IMG/VR virus record: IMGVR_UViG_3300037225_000134
Coordinates: 1 to 61,939 of that record
Strand: one strand, 5' to 3'
From: a virus
Taxonomy: Duplodnaviria > Caudoviricetes
Length of the DNA: 61,939 nucleotides
Positions 9-12,719 of the stretch are shown in pieces; position 1 is the stretch's first letter; every line of letters begins with the position of its first letter. The position numbers and the translations under genes were made by a program. The notes under the pieces were generated by a model that had not been told where the DNA came from, ran no database searches, and saw nothing but the letters and a program-made list of their open reading frames with translations.

Positions 9-1094
9 ATGCCGGAGGACTTCGACAGCAACAAAGATATTATTAATATGAGGAATGGCTTATACAACTTCAGGACCAAGGAGTTTAAACCTCATGATAC
101 CAGGCTACCGACGGCATCCCATCCCCGATACTTATCTATGGTGCAGATACCAGTTGACTATAAGCCTGGTGCTGAATGTGTCAATTTCAAGAAAAGCATG
201 GCCGCGGTATTCACCACCCCCGGAGACCTTCTTAAGATCCGGGAATTTATAGCGTATTGCCTATATAATGATTATTCAATACAAAAGGCATTTATCTTGT
301 ACGGGCCTGCCGACAAGGGGAAGAGTTTTATTATTGACCACATAGTTCAATTTCTCGGCATTAATAATTGCTCAGTGGTATCGATTAAGAAATTGTGCCA
401 TAATAACTTTGCAGGATCCGAGCTATTAGGTAAGCTCATGAATACCAGCGGCGAACTTGATAAAGGCAGCGTTAAGAACTTGTCCGAGTTTAAGACCGCG
501 ATAGGCGGAACGGATCAAATGCGGGTGGAGGCAAAAGGCAAGGATGCCGTTTACTTCAGGAACCGGGCTAAGTTCATATTTGGGACTAACTCAATATTCT
601 CCTCGGAGGATGAATCTGATGGGTTTATGCGTCGGTTTGAAATTATCAAAACCCGGATTGAGGATTTACCGGCGGGGCTACCAACGGAGGCAATGATTAG
701 CACCGATGAAGAAATGAGTGGGCTATTCAACTATGTTATTGACCTTCTGGAACCATTGATAAACAGGCGGAAATTTAGTAACCAGTTGTCGAAGCTGGAG
801 ATAACGCAAGACTTTACGAGGATGGGCAAAAGCATAGAAAGCTTCGTAGAGGATAATGTAGAACCGGGCCATGATAGGCAGGTTATAACTGTGGATGACT
901 TATGGACTCGCTACGTAGAGTATTGTGACGGGCATGGCATCTATGAACACCCGAGGAAATGGAACTTTCTTAGGGCGGTACAACGGTTTCTGCCTGATTC
1001 TCATTATGAAGACGGCCAAAAGCATAGCAGAAGTAAAAAGGAAAAATGCTTAATAGGGTATAGATTCAAGGATAATGAGTGGTCTGGATTATGA
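9..1094 (+). CDS. D5-like SF3 helicase (primase-helicase C-terminal part), probably 5'-truncated by the window edge
   Basis: D5_N-like INMRNGLYNF...IPVDY; Walker A GPADKGKS; SF3 motifs TSGEL, EAKGKD, FGTN, GFMRRF; frame is open to the window start. Confidence 0.85.
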   Translation: MPEDFDSNKDIINMRNGLYNFRTKEFKPHDTRLPTASHPRYLSMVQIPVDYKPGAECVNFKKSMAAVFTTPGDLLKIREFIAYCLYNDYSIQKAFILYGPADKGKSFIIDHIVQFLGINNCSVVSIKKLCHNNFAGSELLGKLMNTSGELDKGSVKNLSEFKTAIGGTDQMRVEAKGKDAVYFRNRAKFIFGTNSIFSSEDESDGFMRRFEIIKTRIEDLPAGLPTEAMISTDEEMSGLFNYVIDLLEPLINRRKFSNQLSKLEITQDFTRMGKSIESFVEDNVEPGHDRQVITVDDLWTRYVEYCDGHGIYEHPRKWNFLRAVQRFLPDSHYEDGQKHSRSKKEKCLIGYRFKDNEWSGL

Positions 1095-1499
1095 ACAACC
1101 ACCTGGTAGGGTGTTTGTATAATCTATACGTAGACATGGCTGGAGACCCGGCGGACTCATAAAGTGTAGGAATGGCAAACATGCATCTGTATATATTAAT
1201 ATTTTTTTACGATAGCAGTAGACTATGGTGTTTTTTATGCAGATGTAAGAATGGCATACTGTAGGCTGTGAGTTACTCATTTCAATTTTTAATTAGTCTA
1301 TAGAGAGTTAAATATAGAGAGAAATAACCAGGGGTAAAGTAGAGTCTGGTTTTTTCGGTATCCGTGGCGAACCTAAGAAAAAAGTTTTTAAAGATAAATT
1401 CAAAAATCGATACCAGTGGTGAGCGATGGACATGTAAATGTTACAGGATGAATAAAAATGCGTATCGATTCTAAGACAAAATTTGGAGTAAAGCATACG

Positions 1500-1507
1500 T
1501 TTATATA
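1500..1507 (+). promoter_or_regulatory. Archaeal TATA box (TTTATATA)
   Basis: TTTATATA about 40 nt before a GGAGG RBS and the ATG at 1545. Confidence 0.55.
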
Positions 1508-1544
1508 GTGGAAGCGTGGTATAAAGAATCTGGAGGATAAGAAT

Positions 1545-1694
1545 ATGGTACAATGTTTTAGAGACAAAACTAGAGAATGCGATAAAGGATGTATAGCCTT
1601 CATAGATGATGGATCAAGATTCACTAAGGAAAGATGTTTGATTTTATTATCTATGGCTACTAGTGCGGATATAGAGTATGTTTTAGATGACTAA
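1545..1694 (+). CDS. Small Cys-containing hypothetical protein (49 aa) whose end overlaps the tnpA start
   Basis: Manual translation MVQCFRDKTRECDKGC...EYVLDD*; GGAGG RBS upstream. Confidence 0.6.
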   Translation: MVQCFRDKTRECDKGCIAFIDDGSRFTKERCLILLSMATSADIEYVLDD

Positions 1695-2097
1695 ACAAGA
1701 GCATTGGGTGAGTGCAAGAGGATGTGTCTATAACGTGTATTACCATTTCGTATGGTCTACAAAATACCGGAGAAAGGTTCTTGTTGGATCAGTGGCCGAA
1801 GATCTTCACTGGCTGCATGAACTGATTGCAGAACAGAAAGGCATTGAAATGGTAAATCAAGAAATCATGCCCGATCATGTTCACCTTTTTGTAACTGCTC
1901 ATCCAATATTTGCTCCTGCGAATATCGTTAAGATCTTCAAAGGAATCACGGCAAAGAAGCTCTTTGAAAAGCATCCTGAACTGAGAAATCAACTCTGGAA
2001 TGGTCATCTCTGGAATCCTTCGTACTATGTAGGAACCTGTGGTGATGCTACCAAAGATGTAATAGAACGATATGTAGCAATGCAAAAGGTGGAGTAA
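1687..2097 (+). CDS. tnpA: IS200/IS605 Y1 HUH transposase
   Basis: YHFVWSTKYRRK, HUH motif PDHVHLF, LWNPSYYVGT, catalytic Tyr in IERYV. Confidence 0.95.
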   Translation: MTKQEHWVSARGCVYNVYYHFVWSTKYRRKVLVGSVAEDLHWLHELIAEQKGIEMVNQEIMPDHVHLFVTAHPIFAPANIVKIFKGITAKKLFEKHPELRNQLWNGHLWNPSYYVGTCGDATKDVIERYVAMQKVE

Positions 2098-2101
2098 GCC
2101 A

Positions 2102-3202
2102 ATGAGAGTGTTTCGATATAGACTCAAACCAACCAAGGCTCAGGTAACCAAGCTGAATGAGCAGCTAGAGCTTTGCCGATGGGTTTATAACGAAACTCTT
2201 GCACTGCGAAAGAACTCCTTTGAACAAGAAGGCAAATCGATAAGCTACTTCGCATCTAAGAAGATGCTGCCTATCTGGAAAGAGTCCAAACCTGAACTAA
2301 GATCGGTCCATTCTCAGGTATTGCAGGATGTTGTTCTCAGGGTCAATCTTGCATTCAGTGCATTCTTCCGAAGAGTCCAATCTGGTGAAGAAGATCCTGG
2401 TTATCCTCGCTTCAAAGGGAGGAACAGATATGACAGCCTCAGTTATCCTCAGACAGGTTTTTCCATAGACGGTAACATGATTTGGTTATCCAAGATAGGT
2501 GATATCAAATTCAAGTTGCATCGACCTATCGAGGGTGATGTTAAGAGACTAACTATCCGAAGATCTTCAACCAAGAAATGGTATGTGTCGTTCCTAATTG
2601 AAGATGCACCAAATCACATTCTTGAACCCTCTAATGAAATAGTAGGCGTAGATATGGGTATCAAGAATTTCGCTGTGCTTTCCAACGGTGAGTCTATCGA
2701 GAATCCTAGATTTCTTCTAGCCGATGAAGAACGACTTAAGAAGGCTCAAAGCAAACGTGATAAGCTTCCTAAAGGATCACCTCGGAGAAGGAAGGCAAGC
2801 AAAGCGGTAAGTCATCTATACGAGAGAGTAACCAATCGAAGAGAAGACTTTGCCCAACAACTAAGTAGGCAGTGGATCAACAAATACGGAATAATTGTAT
2901 TTGAAGATCTGAATATATCAAATATGGTTCATAATCACAACCTAGCGAAGAGCATCCTGGATGCAAGTTGGAATAAACTGGTGCAATATACTTCATACAA
3001 AGCGGAAGACGCTGGTAGAAAAGTAGTGCTAGTTAATCCTGCTTATACATCTCAGATGTGCTCAAGCTGTGGTCAAATAGTCAAAAAGGACCTGTCTATC
3101 AGAGTACACGATTGTCCTTATTGTGGATTATCGATAGACAGAGACCTTAATGCATCTCTGAACATTGCAAGACTGGGGCTACAGTCTTTGGCATCCGCCT
3201 AG
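2102..3202 (+). CDS. tnpB: RNA-guided nuclease TnpB
   Basis: N-terminal HTH, GYPRFK, RuvC residues intact (VGVDMG, VFEDL, DRDLNA), CxxC...CxxC Zn ribbon. Confidence 0.95.
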   Translation: MRVFRYRLKPTKAQVTKLNEQLELCRWVYNETLALRKNSFEQEGKSISYFASKKMLPIWKESKPELRSVHSQVLQDVVLRVNLAFSAFFRRVQSGEEDPGYPRFKGRNRYDSLSYPQTGFSIDGNMIWLSKIGDIKFKLHRPIEGDVKRLTIRRSSTKKWYVSFLIEDAPNHILEPSNEIVGVDMGIKNFAVLSNGESIENPRFLLADEERLKKAQSKRDKLPKGSPRRRKASKAVSHLYERVTNRREDFAQQLSRQWINKYGIIVFEDLNISNMVHNHNLAKSILDASWNKLVQYTSYKAEDAGRKVVLVNPAYTSQMCSSCGQIVKKDLSIRVHDCPYCGLSIDRDLNASLNIARLGLQSLASA

Positions 3203-3254
3203 ATGCCCGCCAATTCATTGGCGGGAGTAGTCACATGATTAGGAGGCTAAAATA
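3080..3254 (+). ncRNA. Putative TnpB omega/reRNA (5' boundary approximate); guide predicted to begin ATGATTAGGAGG at 3235
   Basis: Established TnpB biology: scaffold overlaps the tnpB 3' end and the right-end hairpin, and the guide follows the terminal TCAC. Confidence 0.55.
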
Positions 3255-3658
3255 TGATTCAGTGTAATAGATGTAAGAACTTTAAGCCCGACGTTAAGCT
3301 CTTCCGAATTAAGAATGAGCATGTAGACATGTTCCAAACACTTTGCTCGAATTGCGAAGACGATTATGAAGAGCGGAGATTTATTGTAGAAAGAGAATAC
3401 AAAATATCGGATAGTGATGTCCCTTCAAAATGGGTAAGTGTTGAAACAGATCTGCCGGTCGATAGTCGAGTAGTGTGGGCCTACGATAAACGACGAGGTA
3501 TCGTTATCATAGCCTGGAGACGGTGGATATCCCCGGAGAAAGGATCAAATATAGGCTTGTCAATATGGGAATCTTGTTTATTTGGAGATGACATTCTCAT
3601 AAAAGCATGGTACGATGCTGATTACCCTGGATACCCGCCAAAAGAAATGATGAGGTGA
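3254..3658 (+). CDS. Hypothetical protein, N-terminal Zn finger and DUF551-like C-terminal segment
   Basis: CxxC...CxxC; WVSVETDLP...W pattern; GGAGG RBS. Confidence 0.5.
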   Translation: MIQCNRCKNFKPDVKLFRIKNEHVDMFQTLCSNCEDDYEERRFIVEREYKISDSDVPSKWVSVETDLPVDSRVVWAYDKRRGIVIIAWRRWISPEKGSNIGLSIWESCLFGDDILIKAWYDADYPGYPPKEMMR

Positions 3659-3956
3659 AAACGATGGAAGGTAGGGATAGTTACCTAGATTCCAGGCTGG
3701 AGTGTGGAGGAGCTTACGGTGAAATCATGGATAACGGAGGATTTCTAATGAGGGTATTTGAATGTGAAAAGTGCCATAGATTTAAGCAAGACGTTGCCAA
3801 GTGTACCGTCTATGAAATCGGATACATGAAAAGCAAAAAAGTGCACTATCTCTGCAATGATTGCATGAATGCAGCAATAGCAAAAGGCCACCTGGTATTG
3901 AAGCCCATCTAAGGCCATTTATAGGACCATAGCGAGACTTTGAAGAAGGTGATATA

Positions 3957-4454
3957 TTGATTCATGAACAACTAAGAAAGCAGAACCTTGGGCAAACTGT
4001 GAAGGAGGAAAGCCATATGATTGATGAAGTAACAACTAAACCTAGCTTCCCGGAAACACTTGAAGAAAAGATGTATCCAAAGCGGTTTATAATGGTACCC
4101 TTCGACTGCAAAGCACTGCCGGAGGTAGTAGTACCCGCTTATGCTGACTTTGAAAAACGCTGCCATGAGACACTAACGAAAACCCCGTCTAATAGGATAA
4201 CGTCGGTTATCAGATCTAAAACTGAGCAGAGTAAATTAATGGCTAAATGGAATAGGGATCAACTAATAGCTTATGATGCTTTCCTATGGTCCGAAAAAGT
4301 GAGACACCGAGAGGATATTGATGCAATTGACAAGAAGCGTGAGGTACTCCACCGGGCCGGATTCCAGGCTGATGAACCGGCTCCTTGGATTCATGAGGCC
4401 GAAATAGAGGAAGCTGGAAAAGGTACCGGGTACTTAAAGGTAAATGGAGTGTGA
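3957..4454 (+). CDS. Hypothetical protein
   Basis: Co-oriented ORF with RBS; start may be the ATG near 4017. Confidence 0.55.
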   Translation: MIHEQLRKQNLGQTVKEESHMIDEVTTKPSFPETLEEKMYPKRFIMVPFDCKALPEVVVPAYADFEKRCHETLTKTPSNRITSVIRSKTEQSKLMAKWNRDQLIAYDAFLWSEKVRHREDIDAIDKKREVLHRAGFQADEPAPWIHEAEIEEAGKGTGYLKVNGV

Positions 4455-4671
4455 AATAAATGTCATTGAATAATGTTCTGGTAGTTGCAGAACTAATAAA
4501 AGATGAGATATTTGGGATCTATGATCTATGTGCGGATTGTGAGTATGATGACAGCTACTTTAACTATGGTAACGCTGCATTCCTAGCTACCTCCCTTAAA
4601 GCCGCAATCATTATCGCTATGGATATTGAACATGAATATGGGCCAACCTTCATATTTAAAGGCGATAAAAA

Positions 4672-5028
4672 ATGACCCCCTTAGCCAATTTTTTAGGCTT
4701 ACTGGTAGCGATAGTTAGTAATTTGCTTATGCTACCTCAGATATACCGGATCTACAAAGATAAAGCCGCCAAGGATGTATCCAGGGGAATGATCCTAATC
4801 TATATTATTACACAGAGTCTTTGGATAATGTACTCGTTAGCCGCTAGTGATTATTACCTTTATGTGTCGTCAATAGTGGCGATCATTATAGCAATATCTC
4901 TTGGGGTATTCTATTGGTGGTACGAAATCCACCAGGGCGGGCTTTTTCACTGCAAAAGATGTGGATATACGGGTACACTTGCACCTGGTATGACAACGTG
5001 CGGATGTGATGACCAAAGAGGTAAATGA
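4672..5028 (+). CDS. PQ-loop/SemiSWEET-like small transporter with C-terminal Zn ribbon
   Basis: LPQIYRIYKDKAAKDVS motif, three hydrophobic helices, CKRC...CGC tail. Confidence 0.75.
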   Translation: MTPLANFLGLLVAIVSNLLMLPQIYRIYKDKAAKDVSRGMILIYIITQSLWIMYSLAASDYYLYVSSIVAIIIAISLGVFYWWYEIHQGGLFHCKRCGYTGTLAPGMTTCGCDDQRGK

Positions 5029-5079
5029 AGTTATGACACCGATACCATATATAACGTTATATAAAAATGAGGTGTAACG

Positions 5080-5964
5080 ATGAAAGGAGTACGCTATGAC
5101 AAAGATAGTGGTAAGTATCAAGCACAAATTACAGTCCAAGGTAAGAAGTATGCACTTGGAAGATTTGATACTCTCCTAGAAGCACAGTATGCACGATTAA
5201 GTGCGGAGGAAGAAAAAGAAAAAGGAACATTTATAAAAAATAGTATATTTGCAGGAAGATATAATATTGTCAGCCTCGGAGATTGGCACGTTCCGTATGA
5301 GAATCGAGAAGCCATTAAAGCAGCCCTAAAGTTTGTCGAAAAACTGCAACCAAACATAATAGTACTCCATGAGGTGCATGACTTTTACAAATTGTCTAGG
5401 TTCGACAAAGACCCGGATCGACGCGACAACCTGCAGACGGAGCTAGACATAGCAACTGGATACTTTAACCAAGTCAGGGCGGAAAACCCCGACGCGAGGA
5501 TTATCCTGACAAAATCAAATCACTTGGATAGACTTCGCCGGTATCTATGGGCTAATGCCCAGGGCTTAAGCTCATTAAAGAGCCTGGAGATAGAAAATTT
5601 GCTTAACTTAAGAGCCAATAATATAGAATATATGGAATCATTACTATATAATAATGTCTTATTTAAGCATGGCAACTTGGTTAGTAAAGAAGCTGGAATG
5701 ACAGCCCGCCGCGAACTGCAGGCAGAAGGTCTTAGTGGAGTCTCAGGCCATACTCACCGATTAGCCCAGATCTACAGAAGGGACCGATCAGGTAACTATA
5801 TGTGGATAGAGGGAGGTTGCCTGTGCCAGTTGCAGCCTGAGTATATAGAAGGGGTCTCGAATTGGCAGCATGGCTTTAGTATAGTATCCTTCGACAATGA
5901 GGACTCTAACAAGTATTTCGCTATGCCGGTGCCAATAATTGATGGTGAGGTATTCATATGTTAG
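5080..5964 (+). CDS. AP2 DNA-binding domain fused to a calcineurin-like metallophosphoesterase
   Basis: KGVRYDK...KYQAQI...LGRFDTLLEA..AR (AP2); DWH, SNH, HG, GHTHR metallophosphoesterase motifs. Confidence 0.8.
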   Translation: MKGVRYDKDSGKYQAQITVQGKKYALGRFDTLLEAQYARLSAEEEKEKGTFIKNSIFAGRYNIVSLGDWHVPYENREAIKAALKFVEKLQPNIIVLHEVHDFYKLSRFDKDPDRRDNLQTELDIATGYFNQVRAENPDARIILTKSNHLDRLRRYLWANAQGLSSLKSLEIENLLNLRANNIEYMESLLYNNVLFKHGNLVSKEAGMTARRELQAEGLSGVSGHTHRLAQIYRRDRSGNYMWIEGGCLCQLQPEYIEGVSNWQHGFSIVSFDNEDSNKYFAMPVPIIDGEVFIC

Positions 5965-6242: not shown

Positions 6243-6617
6243 ATGATATATTTGCCACATAAAAAGTATACTCTGAAAAGTGATACCAAACGATATAAGA
6301 AGTACAGAAAACAAGTACTATCTGATAGACAGCAGTGGCATGATAATCATAGAGAAGATTTTAAAAAATACGAAGTATTTAGGAATGGCGAATTAAGGGA
6401 TATGGTGTTTGATCTATTAGGTGATCAATGTGCAAGATGTGGAATCGCAGATTATAGGGTTCTGCAAATTGACCATATAAATGGAGGTGGAAGTATAGAA
6501 AGACGAAAAATAGGTAGCCGAGGAATCTATATCAAGATCCTAGAAGATGGAGGCGCTGGATATCAAATCTTATGCGCAAATTGCAATACTTTAAAGAGAG
6601 CTATAAATAAGGAGTGA
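6243..6617 (+). CDS. HNH endonuclease (homing-type), paralog of 54052-54453
   Basis: CARC...DHINGGGS...YQILCANCN; basic Tyr-rich N-terminus. Confidence 0.85.
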   Translation: MIYLPHKKYTLKSDTKRYKKYRKQVLSDRQQWHDNHREDFKKYEVFRNGELRDMVFDLLGDQCARCGIADYRVLQIDHINGGGSIERRKIGSRGIYIKILEDGGAGYQILCANCNTLKRAINKE

Positions 6618-8262: not shown

Positions 8263-9654
8263 ATGAGCCTTTCTGTTGATACGATCATCTGCGGGGATTG
8301 CAAGGAGATTCTGCCGTCCCTGGAAGAGGATTCGATTGATGCCATTGTCTGCGATCCCCCTTATGAACTTGGCTTCATGGGAAAGAAATGGGACAACCAG
8401 GGCATTGCCTACGATAAAGATATGTGGTTTGGCTGCTTGCGGGTGCTGAAACCTGGCGGCCATCTGTTGGCATTCGGAGGAGATCGCACCCATCATAGGA
8501 TGTTTTGTGCAATAGAAGACGCGAGCTTTGAGGTTCGTCGCACTCTGGTTTGGACATTTGGCTCAGGATTTCCAAAATCTTTGAATGTTTCAAAAAAGAT
8601 TAATGAGACGATTCCTTCCAGCCTTCGGTGCGTTTGTGATGCCCATTTGAGGGATAAAGCATCAAGTTCTCAATCCGATTGTCGTCCCTCTGGTGATTCA
8701 TATGATGAACAACTTCCAACGGGTCAAGATGGTATATCTCGGATATTACATAAATGTAACCGATGTGGTAAATACTTTGCGGGCGATGGTGTTGGGTCTG
8801 ATTTGAAACCCGCCGCTGAGTTCATCTGTTTAGCAAGAAAGCCGCTAGACGCTGGATTTACAATCGCGGCCAATGTCTTGAGATGGGGCGTTGGCGGGCT
8901 GAATATCGATGCTTGCAGGATAGGCACGGAAGGCGGAAGCACTCAACCGTCTGGAATGGATCGATATAATGCGAAATTGGCTACGCAAGGATATAGGCCC
9001 AATGAATACCAACAAGGCGAACCTATGGCACCATTGCCAGCCGGAAGATTTCCCGCCAACCTGATTCATGATGGTTCGCCCGAAGTCCTGGCGGAATTTG
9101 CGAAGGCGGGTCAGTTAAAGAGCGGTGTTTATTCAGGCAAACGAAACTTTCCCAAAACGAAAAATGCTTATGGTAAGTTTGACCTGCAGGATGAAAACCC
9201 CATATCATATGGGGATTCCGGTTCTGCTGCCCGTTTCTTCGCCTCCTGCCCATTCCAGGAGGAGGATCTTCCAGCATTTGTATATTTTGCGAAGGCGAGC
9301 AGGGCGGAAAGAGATGCCGGGCTGTCTGGAATGCCCACATATCACAATGCCGATCTAACCGGAGGAGATCGCAACAAGGAAAATGATAGGGCCGGAACTA
9401 ACCGAAATGGGCCAATCAAGTGTAGTAATAATCATCCTTGTGTAAAACCTTTGTCTCTCATGCGTTATCTTTGCCGCCTGATCACTCCTCCCGGTGGCCT
9501 AATCTTGGACCCCTTCGGCGGAAGTGGTACAACAGGGCTGGCAGCTATCCAAGAAGGATTTCATTATGTGCTGATTGAGCAACAGGCGGAATATTGCGAC
9601 ATCGCCCGCAAGCGCATAGCCGCGATACCGCGACGCCTGGAGGAATGGGCATGA
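8263..9654 (+). CDS. DNA amino-methyltransferase (N6-A/N4-C, beta class) with an internal in-frame insertion
   Basis: Catalytic DPPY near the N-terminus, HPCVKP, SAM-binding LDPFGGSGTT near the C-terminus; visibly more GC-rich than flanks. Confidence 0.92.
   Translation: MSLSVDTIICGDCKEILPSLEEDSIDAIVCDPPYELGFMGKKWDNQGIAYDKDMWFGCLRVLKPGGHLLAFGGDRTHHRMFCAIEDASFEVRRTLVWTFGSGFPKSLNVSKKINETIPSSLRCVCDAHLRDKASSSQSDCRPSGDSYDEQLPTGQDGISRILHKCNRCGKYFAGDGVGSDLKPAAEFICLARKPLDAGFTIAANVLRWGVGGLNIDACRIGTEGGSTQPSGMDRYNAKLATQGYRPNEYQQGEPMAPLPAGRFPANLIHDGSPEVLAEFAKAGQLKSGVYSGKRNFPKTKNAYGKFDLQDENPISYGDSGSAARFFASCPFQEEDLPAFVYFAKASRAERDAGLSGMPTYHNADLTGGDRNKENDRAGTNRNGPIKCSNNHPCVKPLSLMRYLCRLITPPGGLILDPFGGSGTTGLAAIQEGFHYVLIEQQAEYCDIARKRIAAIPRRLEEWA
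8600..8731 (-). pseudogene. HNH endonuclease core encoded antisense within the MTase insertion
   Basis: Minus-strand translation HLDPLEVVHHMNHQRDDNRIENLMLYPSNGHHKRTEGWKESSH*; no plausible full-length start. Confidence 0.8.
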
Positions 9655-10133: not shown

Positions 10134-12719
10134 ATGGTAAAAATCCAGATTTTAGACGTAAGTTACTACACCAATTTTAGGACCAAAGAGCCAATTATTC
10201 AAATTTTTGGGAAAGACTCTGAAGGTAAGTCTCAGGTAATAAATGTTAGTGGCTTTAGGCCATACTTCTATGCGCTACCTATGCATATTGGTCGCGAGGA
10301 TGAGGAAGGCATAATTATCGAGGACGAATATCCTCAGTTAAGTATAAATATAGTAAGTCGATATCTTCCGATGGGATACCAAGAAGGGCCTAGAAAAGTA
10401 TATGTGATAAATTATACTAATCCACAAGATACCAGGGACTTCAGGGAGCGACTAGTTACTGATGGATATGTCAAAGAAGTCTATGAGGCTGATATCCTAT
10501 TTAAGAATAGGTTCATGGTGGATCTAGGGATTAAAGGCTTTGATTGGATTGAAGTACCTGGAGAAAGATGCACTTACCAAGAGATTAAGGTACTAAAAGA
10601 TGAAAGCATTTTGCCATTTCGGGTAATGGGCCTGGATATTGAAACAGAAATACCTGAAACAGGTGGATTCCCGACAGCAGATAAATGTAGTATTATAATT
10701 GCTACGTTGGCATTTGAGCCACTCTTTGAGGGCCGGGCCTCTATGGTACTGGCAGTACATAAAATGAGCGCCACGGACGTATTAGACGGTATGCCAGGCC
10801 AAGTACCACCGTATCTTAGACTCTTCGAGAGGGAGGATCAACTACTAGACTACCTGGAGCAAATAGTTCACGACTACGACCCGGATATTATAGTAGACTA
10901 CAACGGCAATGAGTTTGATATGGGCTATATCACTGATAGGTTAAATATAGTATCACTAAAGAATGATATGGGTCGAAATGGCCGAAGCTGGTTCTGCAGG
11001 GAAAGCCCAGATAAAACCACCTGGCAAATACCGGGCCGGATTCACTTAGATCTATTACCCCTCATCAAGAAGCATGTAAATCCTACTGAGTTTAAAAGCC
11101 TCAAACACCCCCTCAAGGAGTATTCCCTTAAGTATGTAGCGTCACAGCTATTAGAGGTACAAAAGCTGGATATGAAGCCATCAGAGATGCGTAGGGTATG
11201 GGAAAGCGATGAATGGCCCAGGATGATAGAATACGCCAGGCGCGACGCCGAGTTAATGCCACTACTCCTAAACAAGGTGCAACTGCTAGACAAATACATA
11301 GCGTTGGCTCAGGCGGCAGGGTGTCTACTGCAGGATGTCCTTAACGGCGGCCAAAGCACTATGATCGATATGCTCATGATAAGGGAATTCAAGAAGTATG
11401 ATAGACTTATCCCTATGAGGCCGTCTTTCGGGCAACAAAAGGAGCATGAAAACCAGTTAAAGGAGATTCAGAAAACTTTAGATGGTTTAGACCTGGAGGA
11501 ATACTCTGATAGTGACGGCGTGCAATACCAGGGAGGTCTAGTATTACCGCCAGAAGTAGGGCTATGGGAATGGATAGTTATAATGGATTTTGCCAGCCTA
11601 TATCCCTCGATTATGCGTGCGTTTAACTTAAGCCCCGATACCATATACTACGAGAACGGGAAAGCTAAGTTTAGGATGGACTTCCAGGGGATAGTACCTA
11701 AGATCTTAGAAAGGCTATATGAATCCAGAGTTGCCTATAAAAAGGAGATGAAGACCACCACCGATATGCAGCTTAAGGCTCAGTTAAATCTCAAGCAGTA
11801 TGGATGTAAGATACTCCTAAACTCAATTTACGGGTACTTCGGCTTTGATAAAAGTCGACTGTTTGAGATGAGCATTGCCGCCAAGGTGACGGAGGAAGGC
11901 CGGAATGCACTAATTTTAACCAAGAAAACAGTAGAGTCCCATAAAGGGCTTAAAGTAATAGCCGGGGATACCGATAGCGTTTTCATCCATGTAGGCAACG
12001 GTGAAATGAATCACCGGATGTTTGATATCAACAGATTTGTCTATGCCACCAGAATAGGTAAAATAATTCATGATGAAATGGCTGAACTACTTCCAAAACC
12101 TATGAGCCTGGCATTCGAGGCATACGGGAAACGTGGTATACTTCTTGCAAAAAAGAGGTACGCTATTGCAATAACTGAAGACGGTGATAAATATACCATT
12201 AAGCAGCGAGGCATAGAGACTCGCCGGAGAGACTGGTGCAATTATGTGGAAGAGACACTTTCAACAGTTTTTGATACTCTCTTAAATGAGGGTGACATAA
12301 CCAAGGCGGGAATCTATGCAAAAACCCAGATCGAACGGATCGCGAAGCTTCAATATGTCACTGACGACCCGGATCTACTAGCCAAATTGGTGCTAAGTAA
12401 GAAGTACTCTAAACCAGTGGACCAATATAAAGTTAAAACTATGCATATGGAGGCATTGAAGAGAGCACAAGCTAGAGGAGACGAAAGCATTCACCTTGGA
12501 GACCGGATTATGTTCTATGTGGTCGATAAGCATGTTAAGCAATCCACTGCAAAAACGGAAGTAGTAGACTATGTTATAGAACAAAATTTGCCTATCGATA
12601 AGGACTATTACATAAATAAGCAACTAGCTCCACCTTTGGAAAGAATTTTCAAAGTGTTAAACTTCAATATCGCCACGGGTCGATTCAATGGTAAGCAGGT
12701 AACATTTGAAGGGTTCTGA
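10134..12719 (+). CDS. polB: Family B DNA polymerase with proofreading domain and C-terminal PIP box
   Basis: Exo DIET, YNGNEFD, YARRD; pol DFASLYPS, KILLNSIYG, GDTDS, KKRY; ends KQVTFEGF; no intein seen. Confidence 0.97.
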   Translation: MVKIQILDVSYYTNFRTKEPIIQIFGKDSEGKSQVINVSGFRPYFYALPMHIGREDEEGIIIEDEYPQLSINIVSRYLPMGYQEGPRKVYVINYTNPQDTRDFRERLVTDGYVKEVYEADILFKNRFMVDLGIKGFDWIEVPGERCTYQEIKVLKDESILPFRVMGLDIETEIPETGGFPTADKCSIIIATLAFEPLFEGRASMVLAVHKMSATDVLDGMPGQVPPYLRLFEREDQLLDYLEQIVHDYDPDIIVDYNGNEFDMGYITDRLNIVSLKNDMGRNGRSWFCRESPDKTTWQIPGRIHLDLLPLIKKHVNPTEFKSLKHPLKEYSLKYVASQLLEVQKLDMKPSEMRRVWESDEWPRMIEYARRDAELMPLLLNKVQLLDKYIALAQAAGCLLQDVLNGGQSTMIDMLMIREFKKYDRLIPMRPSFGQQKEHENQLKEIQKTLDGLDLEEYSDSDGVQYQGGLVLPPEVGLWEWIVIMDFASLYPSIMRAFNLSPDTIYYENGKAKFRMDFQGIVPKILERLYESRVAYKKEMKTTTDMQLKAQLNLKQYGCKILLNSIYGYFGFDKSRLFEMSIAAKVTEEGRNALILTKKTVESHKGLKVIAGDTDSVFIHVGNGEMNHRMFDINRFVYATRIGKIIHDEMAELLPKPMSLAFEAYGKRGILLAKKRYAIAITEDGDKYTIKQRGIETRRRDWCNYVEETLSTVFDTLLNEGDITKAGIYAKTQIERIAKLQYVTDDPDLLAKLVLSKKYSKPVDQYKVKTMHMEALKRAQARGDESIHLGDRIMFYVVDKHVKQSTAKTEVVDYVIEQNLPIDKDYYINKQLAPPLERIFKVLNFNIATGRFNGKQVTFEGF

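Follow-up and report, generated by a model that had tools for sequence, protein, structure and literature searches.

A probable decayed homing-endonuclease cassette encoded antisense within an open loop of a phage DNA methyltransferase gene

The window, by which we mean the whole 61,939-nucleotide stretch of viral DNA analysed here, probably carries a decayed selfish HNH homing-endonuclease cassette, which lies antisense in the part of a phage DNA methyltransferase gene that encodes a surface loop (Table 1). Judged by its sequence, the HNH copy in the window is a pseudogene remnant; it belongs to the HNH_3 family (PF13392) and is not a complete translatable gene, lacking a start codon, a ribosome-binding site, and the N-terminal two thirds of the protein. 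Three homologous methylase genes carry a complete antisense HNH gene in the same loop, and across those genes the methylase frame is open well beyond expectation.

An earlier note on this DNA had read an HNH motif antisense to an in-frame, Cys-bracketed segment of the methylase, and profile searches bear this out. The minus strand reads ...LDPLEVVHHMNHQRDDNRIENLMLYPSNGHHKRTEGWKESSH, with a core, EVVHHxNxxxxDNRxxNL...H, that fits the HNH_3 profile; the 39-aa minus-strand ORF (8600..8719) matches Pfam HNH_3 with an E value of 2.2e-7 and 30.9 bits, above the gathering cut-off of 24.8, and the 69-aa stop-to-stop reading scores 27.5 bits. By tblastn, residues 104-146 of the full-length HNH of locus L012 match window positions 8731..8603 with 86% identity (E 1e-21), and this protein has no second match elsewhere in the 61.9-kb window. 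The suspicion that this copy is deleted at its 5′ end also proved right: 324 bp are missing relative to L012, 321 relative to L011, and 324 relative to L014, a multiple of three, and the HNH start, the ribosome-binding site, and ~103 HNH codons went with them. Beyond the junction, the plus strand of the remaining HNH-upstream region codes for the C-terminal Cys knuckle.

Table 1. Features of the window and of the three loci with full-length antisense HNH genes
Locus	Feature	Coordinates	Strand	Evidence
Window	Host gene, beta-class N6/N4 DNA methyltransferase, 463 aa	8263..9654	+	ORF; Pfam PF01555, E 2.4e-28
Window	Upstream flank, aa 74-110, closer to insert-bearing alleles	8482..8592	+	Identity comparison
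Window	Host-frame segment, aa 112-181, between GFPKSLxxSK and LKPAxE	8596..8805	+	Loop comparison with homologues
Window	HNH_3 homing-endonuclease gene remnant: last 43 codons, H-N-H core, stop 8600-8602	8600..8731	-	Pfam, tblastn
Window	Cys bracket, N-terminal half, C123-V-C125	8629..8637	+	Opposite HNH codons H-K-R
Window	In-frame deletion junction; 324 bp (108 host codons) of L012 missing	8730..8731	.	DNA alignment
Window	Remnant of region upstream of lost HNH start, homologous to L012 2083-2142	8731..8790	-	DNA alignment and upstream sequences
Window	Cys bracket, C-terminal half, H163-K-C165-N-R-C168, then G-K-Y-F-A	8749..8766	+	Codon comparison
L011	Antisense HNH ORF in methylase ORF 400..2013	740..1234		
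L012	Antisense HNH ORF in methylase ORF 1309..3420	1628..2068		
L014	Antisense HNH ORF in methylase ORF 26..1705	360..791		

Full-length antisense versions, whose existence in homologous methylases the earlier note had raised, are present at the same site as in the window in three metagenomic loci (L011, L012, and L014). These genes are 140-146 codons long, match Pfam HNH_3 at E values of 1e-9 to 5e-13, and are preceded by Shine-Dalgarno sequences (AGGAG/GAGG/AGGAGG). The frame offset between HNH and host is 1 in all four loci, the window included, and the L012 methylase has a second embedded HNH, which is on the same strand with offset 2. The full-length set (n = 3) was retrieved with host-frame peptide patterns, which favour open frames and miss stop-split alleles; L013, which looks similar to L012, was left out. 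In a tree of HNH proteins, those of the methylase loop form one group, in which the antisense trio (SH-aLRT 97) is sister to the same-strand HNHs of L015 and L044 (SH-aLRT 88). When L011, L012, and the window were scanned for consensus signals that could serve the HNH, neither a sigma-70 promoter nor a terminator was called on the minus strand, and a TTGCAT-N17-TATAC(T/C) picked out by eye upstream of the HNH has only three of six matches in its -35 hexamer.

The host frame contains no stop codon across the full-length HNH genes, where synonymous recoding predicts 3.7-5.9 (n = 3; L011, L012, and L014), and the remaining two plus-strand frames contain 3-14. The probability of an open frame is 0.0000-0.0024 with codons permuted and 0.001-0.015 with methylase codon usage, the three values being non-independent because the loci share ancestry. 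The missing stops lead us to conclude that selection holds the host frame open. Identity is 72-74% among the HNH proteins and 46-57% among the host-frame loops, and the HNH frame is therefore the conserved one. The proposal that the sense frame is kept open without an intron or intein holds up, both in the recoding test and in the lack of a Hint domain or an Rfam intron family (see below).

The methylase ORF reads GFPKSLNVSKKINETIPSSLRCVCDAH...ILHKCNRCGKYFAGDGVGSDLKPAAE and has the motifs DPPY (aa 31-34) and FGGSGTT (aa 418-424). Some 8000 of its relatives were scored; its best tblastn matches among phage isolates are mycobacteriophage methylases, and blastn against the same isolates returned just short methylase-core matches. 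Homologues without an insert have a native loop of ~60 aa with the motifs ALDKxxGAEREVIG and ITAPxTxAAKQWxGWG; since both are absent from the window methylase, the segment replaces the native loop and is not a pure insertion. What had been described as an insertion at 8595-8785 is thus an in-frame segment as stated, but one that covers ~8596-8805 and stands in place of native sequence. This segment is a junk peptide, which the methylase frame reads through. Inserts of this type occur in 9 of 99 non-self homologue loops; an apparent insert-free form with 100% identity, P0001, turned out to be the window's own protein, called with a truncated N terminus. Viral-contig scans with P0048 and with loop alignment A1 yielded no Cys-bracket locus; the loop of L004, from the P0048 scan, is occupied by an insert of an unrelated, helix-turn-helix-like kind, and L009 has split ORFs.

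A clasp of zinc-bound cysteines had been suggested to loop out the peptide, a feature that AlphaFold2 does not show: it models the conserved methylase core (pLDDT >90) but gives no confident structure at the Cys-bracketed segment, where pLDDT is 40-66 over aa 111-180, a stretch without zinc-ribbon-like strands in the model, and below 50 at residues 126-170. Several further methylase regions outside the segment are also modelled with low confidence. With this patchy confidence and the loss of native-loop motifs common to most homologues, the window methylase may no longer be functional.

The bracket residues themselves (C123, C125, H163, C165, and C168) are conserved, and the two halves differ in how their conservation can be read. 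In the C-terminal knuckle the H, C, C, Y, A, G, and G do not vary among four loci, and every one of them is written with differing synonymous codons in the host frame, which shows the knuckle to be under host-frame purifying selection. The N-terminal CxC lies opposite the HNH codons CAC AAA CGC, which are identical in 4/4 loci, and synonymous variation is seen in 19 of 28 other invariant residues; because it faces this conserved H-K-R, the conservation of the CxC could be driven by the HNH frame or by a DNA element. A Pfam match to RNHCP in the window protein is sub-threshold (E 0.077).

These residues bear on a first alternative, which is possible if somewhat doubtful: that the endonuclease is the evolutionary source alone, and that selection keeps a small Cys4/His zinc-binding methylase loop, used for instance for DNA contacts or stability, as a functional domain and not a scar. 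Such a loop would account for a bracket that outlived the 324-bp deletion, for a knuckle (H-x-C-x-x-C-x-x-Y-x-A) with 7/7 invariant residues over synonymous host-frame variation, and for the recurrence of CxC...CxxCG around the same-strand HNH of L015, outside the HNH coding region, and in the loops of P0072 and P0077. However, the HNH that L044 carries in this loop has no Cys bracket around it, the bracket on its own is found in 0 of 90 extracted insert-free loops, the AlphaFold2 model gives the segment neither confidence nor zinc-ribbon-like strands, and the CxC half may owe its conservation to the opposite strand.

The favoured reading, a homing cassette that has decayed, is compatible with the mosaic structure of the methylase. 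The window protein is 90-92% identical to insert-free P0002/P0010 over aa 1-73 and 84-88% over aa 386-463, against 48-70% between this backbone and insert-bearing alleles. The flank at aa 74-110 is 84% identical to insert-bearing P0048, 73-76% to L011/P0075, and 65% to P0002/P0010, and looks like a co-conversion tract; an insert-free backbone with an insert-bearing patch fits homing plus co-conversion. The patch is suggestive of co-conversion and not proof of it, because mosaicism is in any case a feature of phage methylases; identity to all compared alleles is just 28-53% in the target-recognition region (aa 216-300).

We propose that in intact copies (L011, L012, and L014) the HNH_3 gene would be read from the minus strand using its own Shine-Dalgarno sequence, and that the methylase would be translated straight across it on the plus strand, with the HNH codon choice avoiding all host-frame stops. 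The read-through peptide would form a disordered loop between CxC and HxCxxC and stay part of the finished enzyme. Spread probably works through cleavage of insert-free methylase alleles in co-infecting phages, after which repair would copy the cassette in along with short flanks. In the window phage, it would have arrived in a P0002/P0010-like methylase backbone and then lost 324 bp in frame; what is left of the endonuclease is a dead fragment, with the methylase frame unbroken and the Cys bracket still present. Endonuclease activity and its target, homing, zinc binding, and a retained methylase activity are what we infer.

It is improbable that the HNH is not selfish and forms a linked module with the methylase, working in the manner of restriction-modification or turned against competitor DNA that lacks methylation, with the overlap ensuring joint inheritance. 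HNH genes do recur in or beside methylases of the PF01555 family: the L012 methylase has its two embedded HNHs, L070 combines a hidden HNH with a free-standing one between methylase genes, an HNH/EndoVII-like ORF lies 1.6 kb upstream in the window, and free-standing HNHs upstream of related methylases are described in the available part of a published study (PMC11855218). However, the closest methylase alleles lack any HNH, the window phage retained its methylase frame and lost the HNH, related HNHs lie antisense in terminase inteins where no methylase is involved, and the apparently patchy, mosaic distribution fits a selfish element.

We regard it as very improbable that an unrecognised intron, translational bypass, or atypical protein splicing takes the segment out before the mature enzyme forms, with the open frame being incidental. 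The insert does start near a Cys and end near H-K-C-N, and the authors of the same study (PMC11855218), in the text available, likewise could not fully exclude splicing. However, an intron or bypass needs no open frame, yet the frame is open far beyond expectation, and Rfam, at its gathering score, matched nothing in the window, L011, L012, or L014. Searches for a Hint/intein domain were negative for the window protein at E<=10 (Pfam; PF14890, PF05203, and other Hint families) and for all five host methylases scanned (L011, L012, L014, L044, and L107) at E<=1, and the read-through peptide should therefore stay in the methylase. The splicing domain of inteins is ~130 aa, and the HNH-free host residues are only ~20-30 per side, too few for such a domain. 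Across the segment, one RNA-Seq library contig (8551-9108) is colinear with the window and free of joints or indels, which is weak evidence on splicing because such libraries may contain DNA; DNA contigs from three further runs are likewise colinear, without joints or indels. Among the contigs of the four runs, in which rare variants are invisible, there was neither a full-length HNH allele nor an insert-free one.

We consider refuted the idea that a variable low-complexity loop resembles an HNH on its other strand by coincidence: the remnant counts just 43 codons and lacks a start, but its above-threshold Pfam match, its identity to the complete L012 HNH at the same site, the full-length homologues, and an identical frame relation in 4/4 loci leave chance a negligible probability.

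The class of hidden HNH genes to which we assign the cassette is not new, because the ShiLan domain has been published (Arsenault, Gosselin, and Gogarten 2025, Genes 16:178, PMC11855218). As described in the portion of that article available to us, it is a same-strand, out-of-frame HNH hidden in mycobacteriophage DNA methylases that adds no stop to the methylase frame, shows no intein or intron signature, is reported to lack a ribosome-binding site, and is interpreted as homing. The earlier note's idea of a distinct class of selfish element is not supported, as an HNH in the alternate frame of an open methylase is already covered by that account (PMC11855218, available part). The two systems share a PF01555 methylase host with GSGFPKS...ALKPxHEP, a hidden HNH, a methylase frame that here is open beyond chance, the lack of intein or intron signatures, and a host-frame peptide predicted to be disordered or looped out. 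The ShiLan distribution is disjunct, and that of the present inserts may be so as well. The ShiLan HNH, as the accessible text has it, lies on the same strand in the third frame, whereas ours lies on the opposite strand at offset 1 in 4/4 loci. We independently recovered Mantra gp64, from a phage named in PMC11855218, with an HNH query, and the Mantra HNH is same-strand with offset 2, as is the second HNH of L012. The sites also differ: the Mantra insert follows HEPVVVARKP, with a repeated EPxVVARKP, and its GFPKS-LKPAxE loop is native, whereas here that loop is replaced. The Cys bracket and visible Shine-Dalgarno sequences distinguish our antisense loci further, their hosts are peat and permafrost metagenome phages of 42-58% G+C and not actinophages, and the window copy is a deleted remnant. 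What is new here relative to ShiLan is the antisense orientation, the different site, and the Cys bracket, a variant and not a class. The antisense form extends the published same-strand case, because sense and antisense messages then have to be made and translated separately. The words antisense, anti-sense, reverse, opposite, and complement do not occur in PMC11855218, and the literature searched held no antisense HNH within a non-intein host ORF, although the supplements of that article and of the intein preprint could list cases.

Antisense or other-frame endonuclease genes are known from non-canonical inteins (Gorbalenya 1998; Gogarten et al. 2002; both via bioRxiv 10.1101/2025.01.02.630785). 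In the available part of that preprint these comprise antisense LAGLIDADG and VSR-like genes and a frame-3 EndoVII-like gene, with HNH solely in frame. We found related HNHs antisense inside terminase inteins in 15 of 92 loci, all with the frame relation seen in the window. Intein_splicing was matched at E<=0.001 in seven of eight terminase hosts scanned, just L051 exceeding the Pfam cut-off, and host L071 has a Hom_end_hint match instead. As the preprint's available text describes them, the non-canonical inteins are like the methylase cassettes in that an antisense endonuclease gene overlaps a host frame that must stay open, but their read-through peptide is spliced out, whereas the methylases here have no Hint domain. 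An HNH ORF lies wholly within another open frame at 30 HNH-relative loci, and in 13 of them the host extends for under 80 codons on one side. Within this set of 13, L065, L078, L082, and L100 look as if a capsid-like or other ORF had been extended N-terminally by chance in the antisense frame that is codon-aligned, and they were not counted as embedded. The mobE gene within nrdA of phage Aeh1, which Gibb and Edgell are said to have described in 2007, reportedly breaks its host gene into two ORFs whose products reassemble. It is likewise an HNH homing-endonuclease gene within a conserved phage gene, neither intron nor intein, but differs in that the host frame here continues through the endonuclease gene.

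A broader idea, which we offer tentatively and would not ourselves bet on, is that dual-coding stealth has arisen time and again among HNH_3 homing endonucleases, their genes lying antisense or in another frame of essential or useful phage ORFs, with HNH codons that keep the host open. In terminase inteins, splicing would remove the junk peptide; in the methylase loop, a selected CxC...HxCxxC clasp would replace the splicing domain, tie together the ends of the junk loop, and come with the cassette in either orientation. If so, stealth and clasp would amount to a protein-level substitute for splicing, with a selfish gene tolerated inside a host protein; the Cys bracket gives a concrete, testable suggestion as to how ~170 junk residues may be accommodated in a host protein. 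That HNHs of the methylase loop are linked to those embedded in inteins is relevant to the way inteins gain their endonucleases. Gene callers miss endonuclease genes hidden in ordinary-looking ORFs, which inflates the counts of 'disordered insertions' and of 'decaying' or mini-inteins in phage proteins. The recoding test quantifies selection for an open host frame and is applicable to any suspected overlap. The window itself is a modest result, a dead remnant recording a past invasion.

Free-standing HNH_3 relatives annotated as HNH endonucleases are found in Bacillus phage IEBH, Halobacterium phage phiH, and others; the window copy differs from these phage endonucleases in having no start codon and in matching, in its 39-aa ORF, profile positions 20-45 of 46.

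The methylase sequence between GSGFPKSLNVSK and LKPAAEFICLARKP reads KINETIPSSLRCVCDAHLRDKASSSQSDCRPSGDSYDEQLPTGQDGISRILHKCNRCGKYFAGDGVGSD on the + strand of the window, and the peptide encoded opposite this segment, which ends at the minus-strand stop at 8600-8602, is ...LDPLEVVHHMNHQRDDNRIENLMLYPSNGHHKRTEGWKESSH. The peptide covers only positions 20-45 of the 46 in the Pfam HNH_3 profile, but scores 30.9 bits against a gathering threshold of 24.8 (E 2.2e-7), and it has 86% identity to residues 104-146 of the HNH protein of L012, one of the retrieved loci (E 1e-21). The antisense HNH within an in-frame methylase segment that the earlier note had proposed is thus real; no second copy is present elsewhere in the window (61,939 bp, one contig, the entire assembly).

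A metagenome scan with the loop alignment gave 177 pattern matches and four confirmed loci, of which L011, L012, and L014 were analyzed and L013, similar to L012, was left out. In all three, an antisense ORF matching HNH_3 (E 1.4e-10, 1.3e-9, and 5.3e-13, respectively) lies wholly within an uninterrupted methylase ORF (see table), so the complete versions anticipated in homologous methylases do exist, and the frame relation between methylase (host) and HNH is the same in these loci and the window (4/4). The antisense HNH proteins share 72-74% pairwise identity and the host-frame loops 46-57%, and the HNH frame is therefore the conserved one. By eye, Shine-Dalgarno-like sequences lie 6-9 bases 5′ of the HNH ATG (GAGG in L011, AGGAG in L012, AGGAGG in L014); a consensus scan called no minus-strand promoter in L011, L012, or the window.

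Coordinates of methylase genes, embedded HNH ORFs, and neighboring features
Locus	Feature	Coordinates	Strand	Detail
Window	Beta-class N6/N4 DNA methyltransferase	8263..9654	+	463 aa; PF01555, E 2.4e-28
Window	Free-standing ORF	6243..6617	+	124 aa; CxxC...DH.NG...CxxC
Window	Family-B DNA polymerase-like ORF	10134..12719	+	861 aa
L011	Methylase ORF	400..2013	+
L011	Antisense HNH ORF	740..1234	-	Likely start MKKKLNR
L012	Methylase ORF	1309..3420	+
L012	Antisense HNH ORF	1628..2068	-
L012	Second hidden HNH_3	2382..3050	+	222 aa; E 1e-14
L014	Methylase ORF	26..1705	+
L014	Antisense HNH ORF	360..791	-
L015	Methylase	2152..3804		Window's loop
L015	Same-strand HNH, out of frame	2483..2992	+
L044	Methylase	2083..3390		Window's loop; 34% G+C
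L044	Same-strand HNH, out of frame	2312..2809	+
L004	Locus with unrelated insert at same loop	2302..3789
L070	Methylase-like and HNH_3 ORFs	513..2423, 958..2013, 2399..3103, 3409..5142		Contig of 289 kb
Mantra (L107, NC_051680.1)	gp64	799..3123		Annotated only 'methyltransferase'
Mantra	Out-of-frame HNH_3-like ORF	1698..2387

Of the 120 best methylase homologues, 100 yielded the loop, and in the remaining 20 the motif pattern failed. Among the 99 non-self loops, 90 have a sequence other than the window's type, most of them a native loop of ~60 aa (ALDKxxGAEREVIG...ITAPxTxAAKQWxGWG) and some with helix-turn-helix-like inserts. Seven proteins (P0034, P0047, P0048, P0049, P0075, P0086, and P0087) carry a window-type loop of ~200 aa with the pattern RCVC...low-complexity...ISRIxHKCNxCxKYFAxxGxGTALKPAAE, and a G+C-rich variant, likewise bracketed by CxC and CxxCG, occurs in P0072 and P0077. 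In alignment with these long forms, the window loop is missing ~107 middle residues. Its host-frame segment is a replacement of the native loop, and longer versions of this segment exist. Unrelated inserts of 70-100 aa resembling helix-turn-helix domains (GLTYKQIDxxLG..., GISRKELTMLF...) occur at the same loop in L004 and in P0007, P0008, P0011, P0041, and P0108, and the loop is thus a general hotspot tolerating insertions.

That the window copy is deleted at its 5′ end was borne out by DNA alignment and coordinate mapping: 324 bp of L012 (1759..2082), including the HNH start, the Shine-Dalgarno sequence, and ~103 codons, are absent between window positions 8730 and 8731. The deletion is 321 bp relative to L011 and 324 bp relative to L014, multiples of three that spare the methylase frame, as expected if selection on the methylase continued, but chance alone would spare it in one event out of three. 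The window methylase is also mosaic. Its residues 1-73 and 386-463 are closest to the insert-free P0002 and P0010 (90-92% and 84-88% identity, versus 51-70% and 48-55% to insert-bearing alleles), whereas residues 74-110, directly upstream of the insert, have 65% identity to P0002/P0010 but 84% to P0048 and 73-76% to L011/P0075. The insert itself is not alignable with P0002/P0010 and has 59-61% identity to insert-bearing alleles, with which the downstream flank LKPAAEFIC is shared, rather than matching LKPAHEPIV. This is the trace that homing with co-conversion of flanks would be expected to leave, but it is only supportive, because phage methylases are generally mosaic (residues 216-300 have 28-53% identity to all alleles compared).

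In the window-type frame relation, a host-frame stop arises where TT, CT, or TC closes one HNH codon and the next begins with A, and each full-length HNH gene has 19-22 such at-risk dipeptides. We recoded each gene synonymously and counted host-frame stops, in two runs; none are observed in L011, L012, or L014, with 3.7-5.9 expected. The probability of an open frame is 0.0000, 0.0002, and 0.0024 with codons permuted within the gene, and 0.015, 0.001, and 0.003 with codons drawn from methylase usage, for three loci that are related by descent and were retrieved with host-frame patterns. The remaining two + frames have 3-14 stops across the HNH genes. The host frame across the antisense HNH is thus held open by selection, as the earlier note had supposed for an element needing neither intron nor intein. 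Pfam searches found no Hint/intein family in the window protein (E<=10) or in the methylases of L011, L012, L014, L044, and Mantra (E<=1), and the window, L011, L012, and L014 have no Rfam matches; by these searches the insert is neither an intein nor a recognised intron. The window phage is present in peat and permafrost metagenome runs, where contigs of four runs, one of them an RNA-Seq library with a contig covering 8551-9108, are colinear across the segment without a joint or indel. These contigs speak only weakly against splicing, because RNA-Seq libraries can contain DNA and contigs mask rare forms.

The host-frame cysteines bracketing the insert (CxC...HxCxxC) show two patterns of codon use. 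Across the final 40 HNH codons, the four loci agree at 28 residues that have degenerate codons but use an identical codon at only nine of them, and six of these nine lie within H-K-R-x-E-G-W-K-E (CAC AAA CGC ... GAA ... AAG GAA), opposite host-frame IPSxLRCVC; no other His or Arg codon would give Cys in the host frame. Such a pattern is consistent with constraint on the two frames, and a DNA-level element would be an alternative. Opposite the C-terminal knuckle is non-coding sequence 5′ of the HNH gene. Seven knuckle residues (H, C, C, Y, A, G, and G) do not differ among the four loci, and each of them varies synonymously in the host frame (TGT/TGC, CAT/CAC, TAC/TAT, etc.), the mark of purifying selection acting on the peptide of that frame. 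In L015, this loop holds a same-strand HNH, flanked just outside its coding region by CRC...CPKCGG; L044 has an HNH in this loop without the bracket, and its methylase N-terminus is apparently frameshifted (aa 6-34 in another frame). An AlphaFold2 model (59-sequence alignment; mean pLDDT 68.5) exceeds 90 in the conserved methylase core and falls below 50 at residues 126-170, precisely the part enclosed by C125 and C165. The bracket may plausibly have a structural role, and a putative zinc clasp is a reasonable, testable hypothesis.

Of 92 loci with HNH relatives, 80 of them viral and 12 from genomes, 30 have the HNH ORF entirely within another open frame, and in 17 of these at least 80 host codons extend beyond it on both sides. 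Two are the same-strand methylase cases L015 and L044; the other 15 (L021, L022, L025, L026, L027, L030, L032, L034, L035, L040, L051, L055, L063, L071, and L077) are antisense, all with the window's frame relation. Here a complete HNH gene on the + strand lies in the intein linker of a minus-strand host ORF resembling terminase large subunits, with the P-loop interrupted by the intein (ggnr|CLAGEQ...HN|SGKT). Pfam scans of eight of these hosts gave Intein_splicing matches in seven, with only L051 above Pfam's own cut-off; the L071 host instead matched LAGLIDADG_3 and Hom_end_hint, and terminase domains exceeded the cut-off in L063 only. The recoding test gave P <=0.01 in 14/15 (0.08 for L030), and for same-strand HNHs 0.0000 in L015 and L044 and 0.036-0.050 in Mantra and the second HNH of L012. 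This second HNH (0.036) is G+C-rich and sits in another frame of the unbroken methylase at a third insertion site, between ...ARFF and YxAKAS.

A quick maximum-likelihood tree, built from 97 HNH sequences, places the three antisense methylase HNHs together (SH-aLRT 97) with L015 and L044 as their sister (support 88), and the loop's HNH lineage thus exists in both orientations. Eleven HNHs from inteins cluster apart from these (support 100), and embedding requires at least six state changes and therefore arose more than once. As a separate observation, a methylase-like ORF in L070, matching only the N-terminal part of PF01555, encloses a 351-aa HNH_3 ORF in another frame (E 1.4e-6); after it come a free-standing HNH_3 gene and a second methylase gene.

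The distinct new class suggested in the earlier note is already in print: Arsenault, Gosselin, and Gogarten (2025, PMC11855218) describe the ShiLan domain, an insertion in mycobacteriophage DNA methylases with no added stop, no intein or intron signature, and a disjunct distribution, with an HNH hidden on the same strand in its third frame, and predict that the domain loops out of the enzyme. We independently retrieved one phage of that paper, Mantra, in which the gp64 insert is the published ShiLan-type element; its HNH_3-like ORF is flanked by repeated (H/F)EPxVVARKP, and gp64 also carries LAGLIDADG_1 in frame (aa 62-159, E 6e-16) and has no Hint domain. Unlike ShiLan, the window-type element is antisense in a host without an intein, occupies a different site with loop replacement, has a Cys bracket and a visible ribosome-binding site, and is found in non-actinophage environmental hosts; the terms antisense, anti-sense, reverse, opposite, and complement have 0 occurrences in PMC11855218. 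A preprint from the same group (10.1101/2025.01.02.630785) reports inteins that contain LAGLIDADG and VSR-like genes in antisense or an EndoVII-like gene in frame 3, and credits the earliest antisense intein cases to Gorbalenya 1998 and Gogarten 2002; the HNHs described there are in frame only, whereas the 15 terminase-intein HNHs here are antisense. The main inference of the earlier note holds: in the window, a hidden-HNH homing element of a phage methylase has reached a decayed end state. It is a variant of the kind described in 2025 and not a new class.

Near the methylase, the free-standing ORF 1.6 kb upstream has no sequence relationship to the embedded remnant and weakly matches Endonuclease_7 (E 0.024) and HNH (E 0.068). 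The polymerase-like ORF directly downstream of the methylase region agrees with the reading of the window as a phage genome, with 42% G+C, that is present in the peat and permafrost runs.
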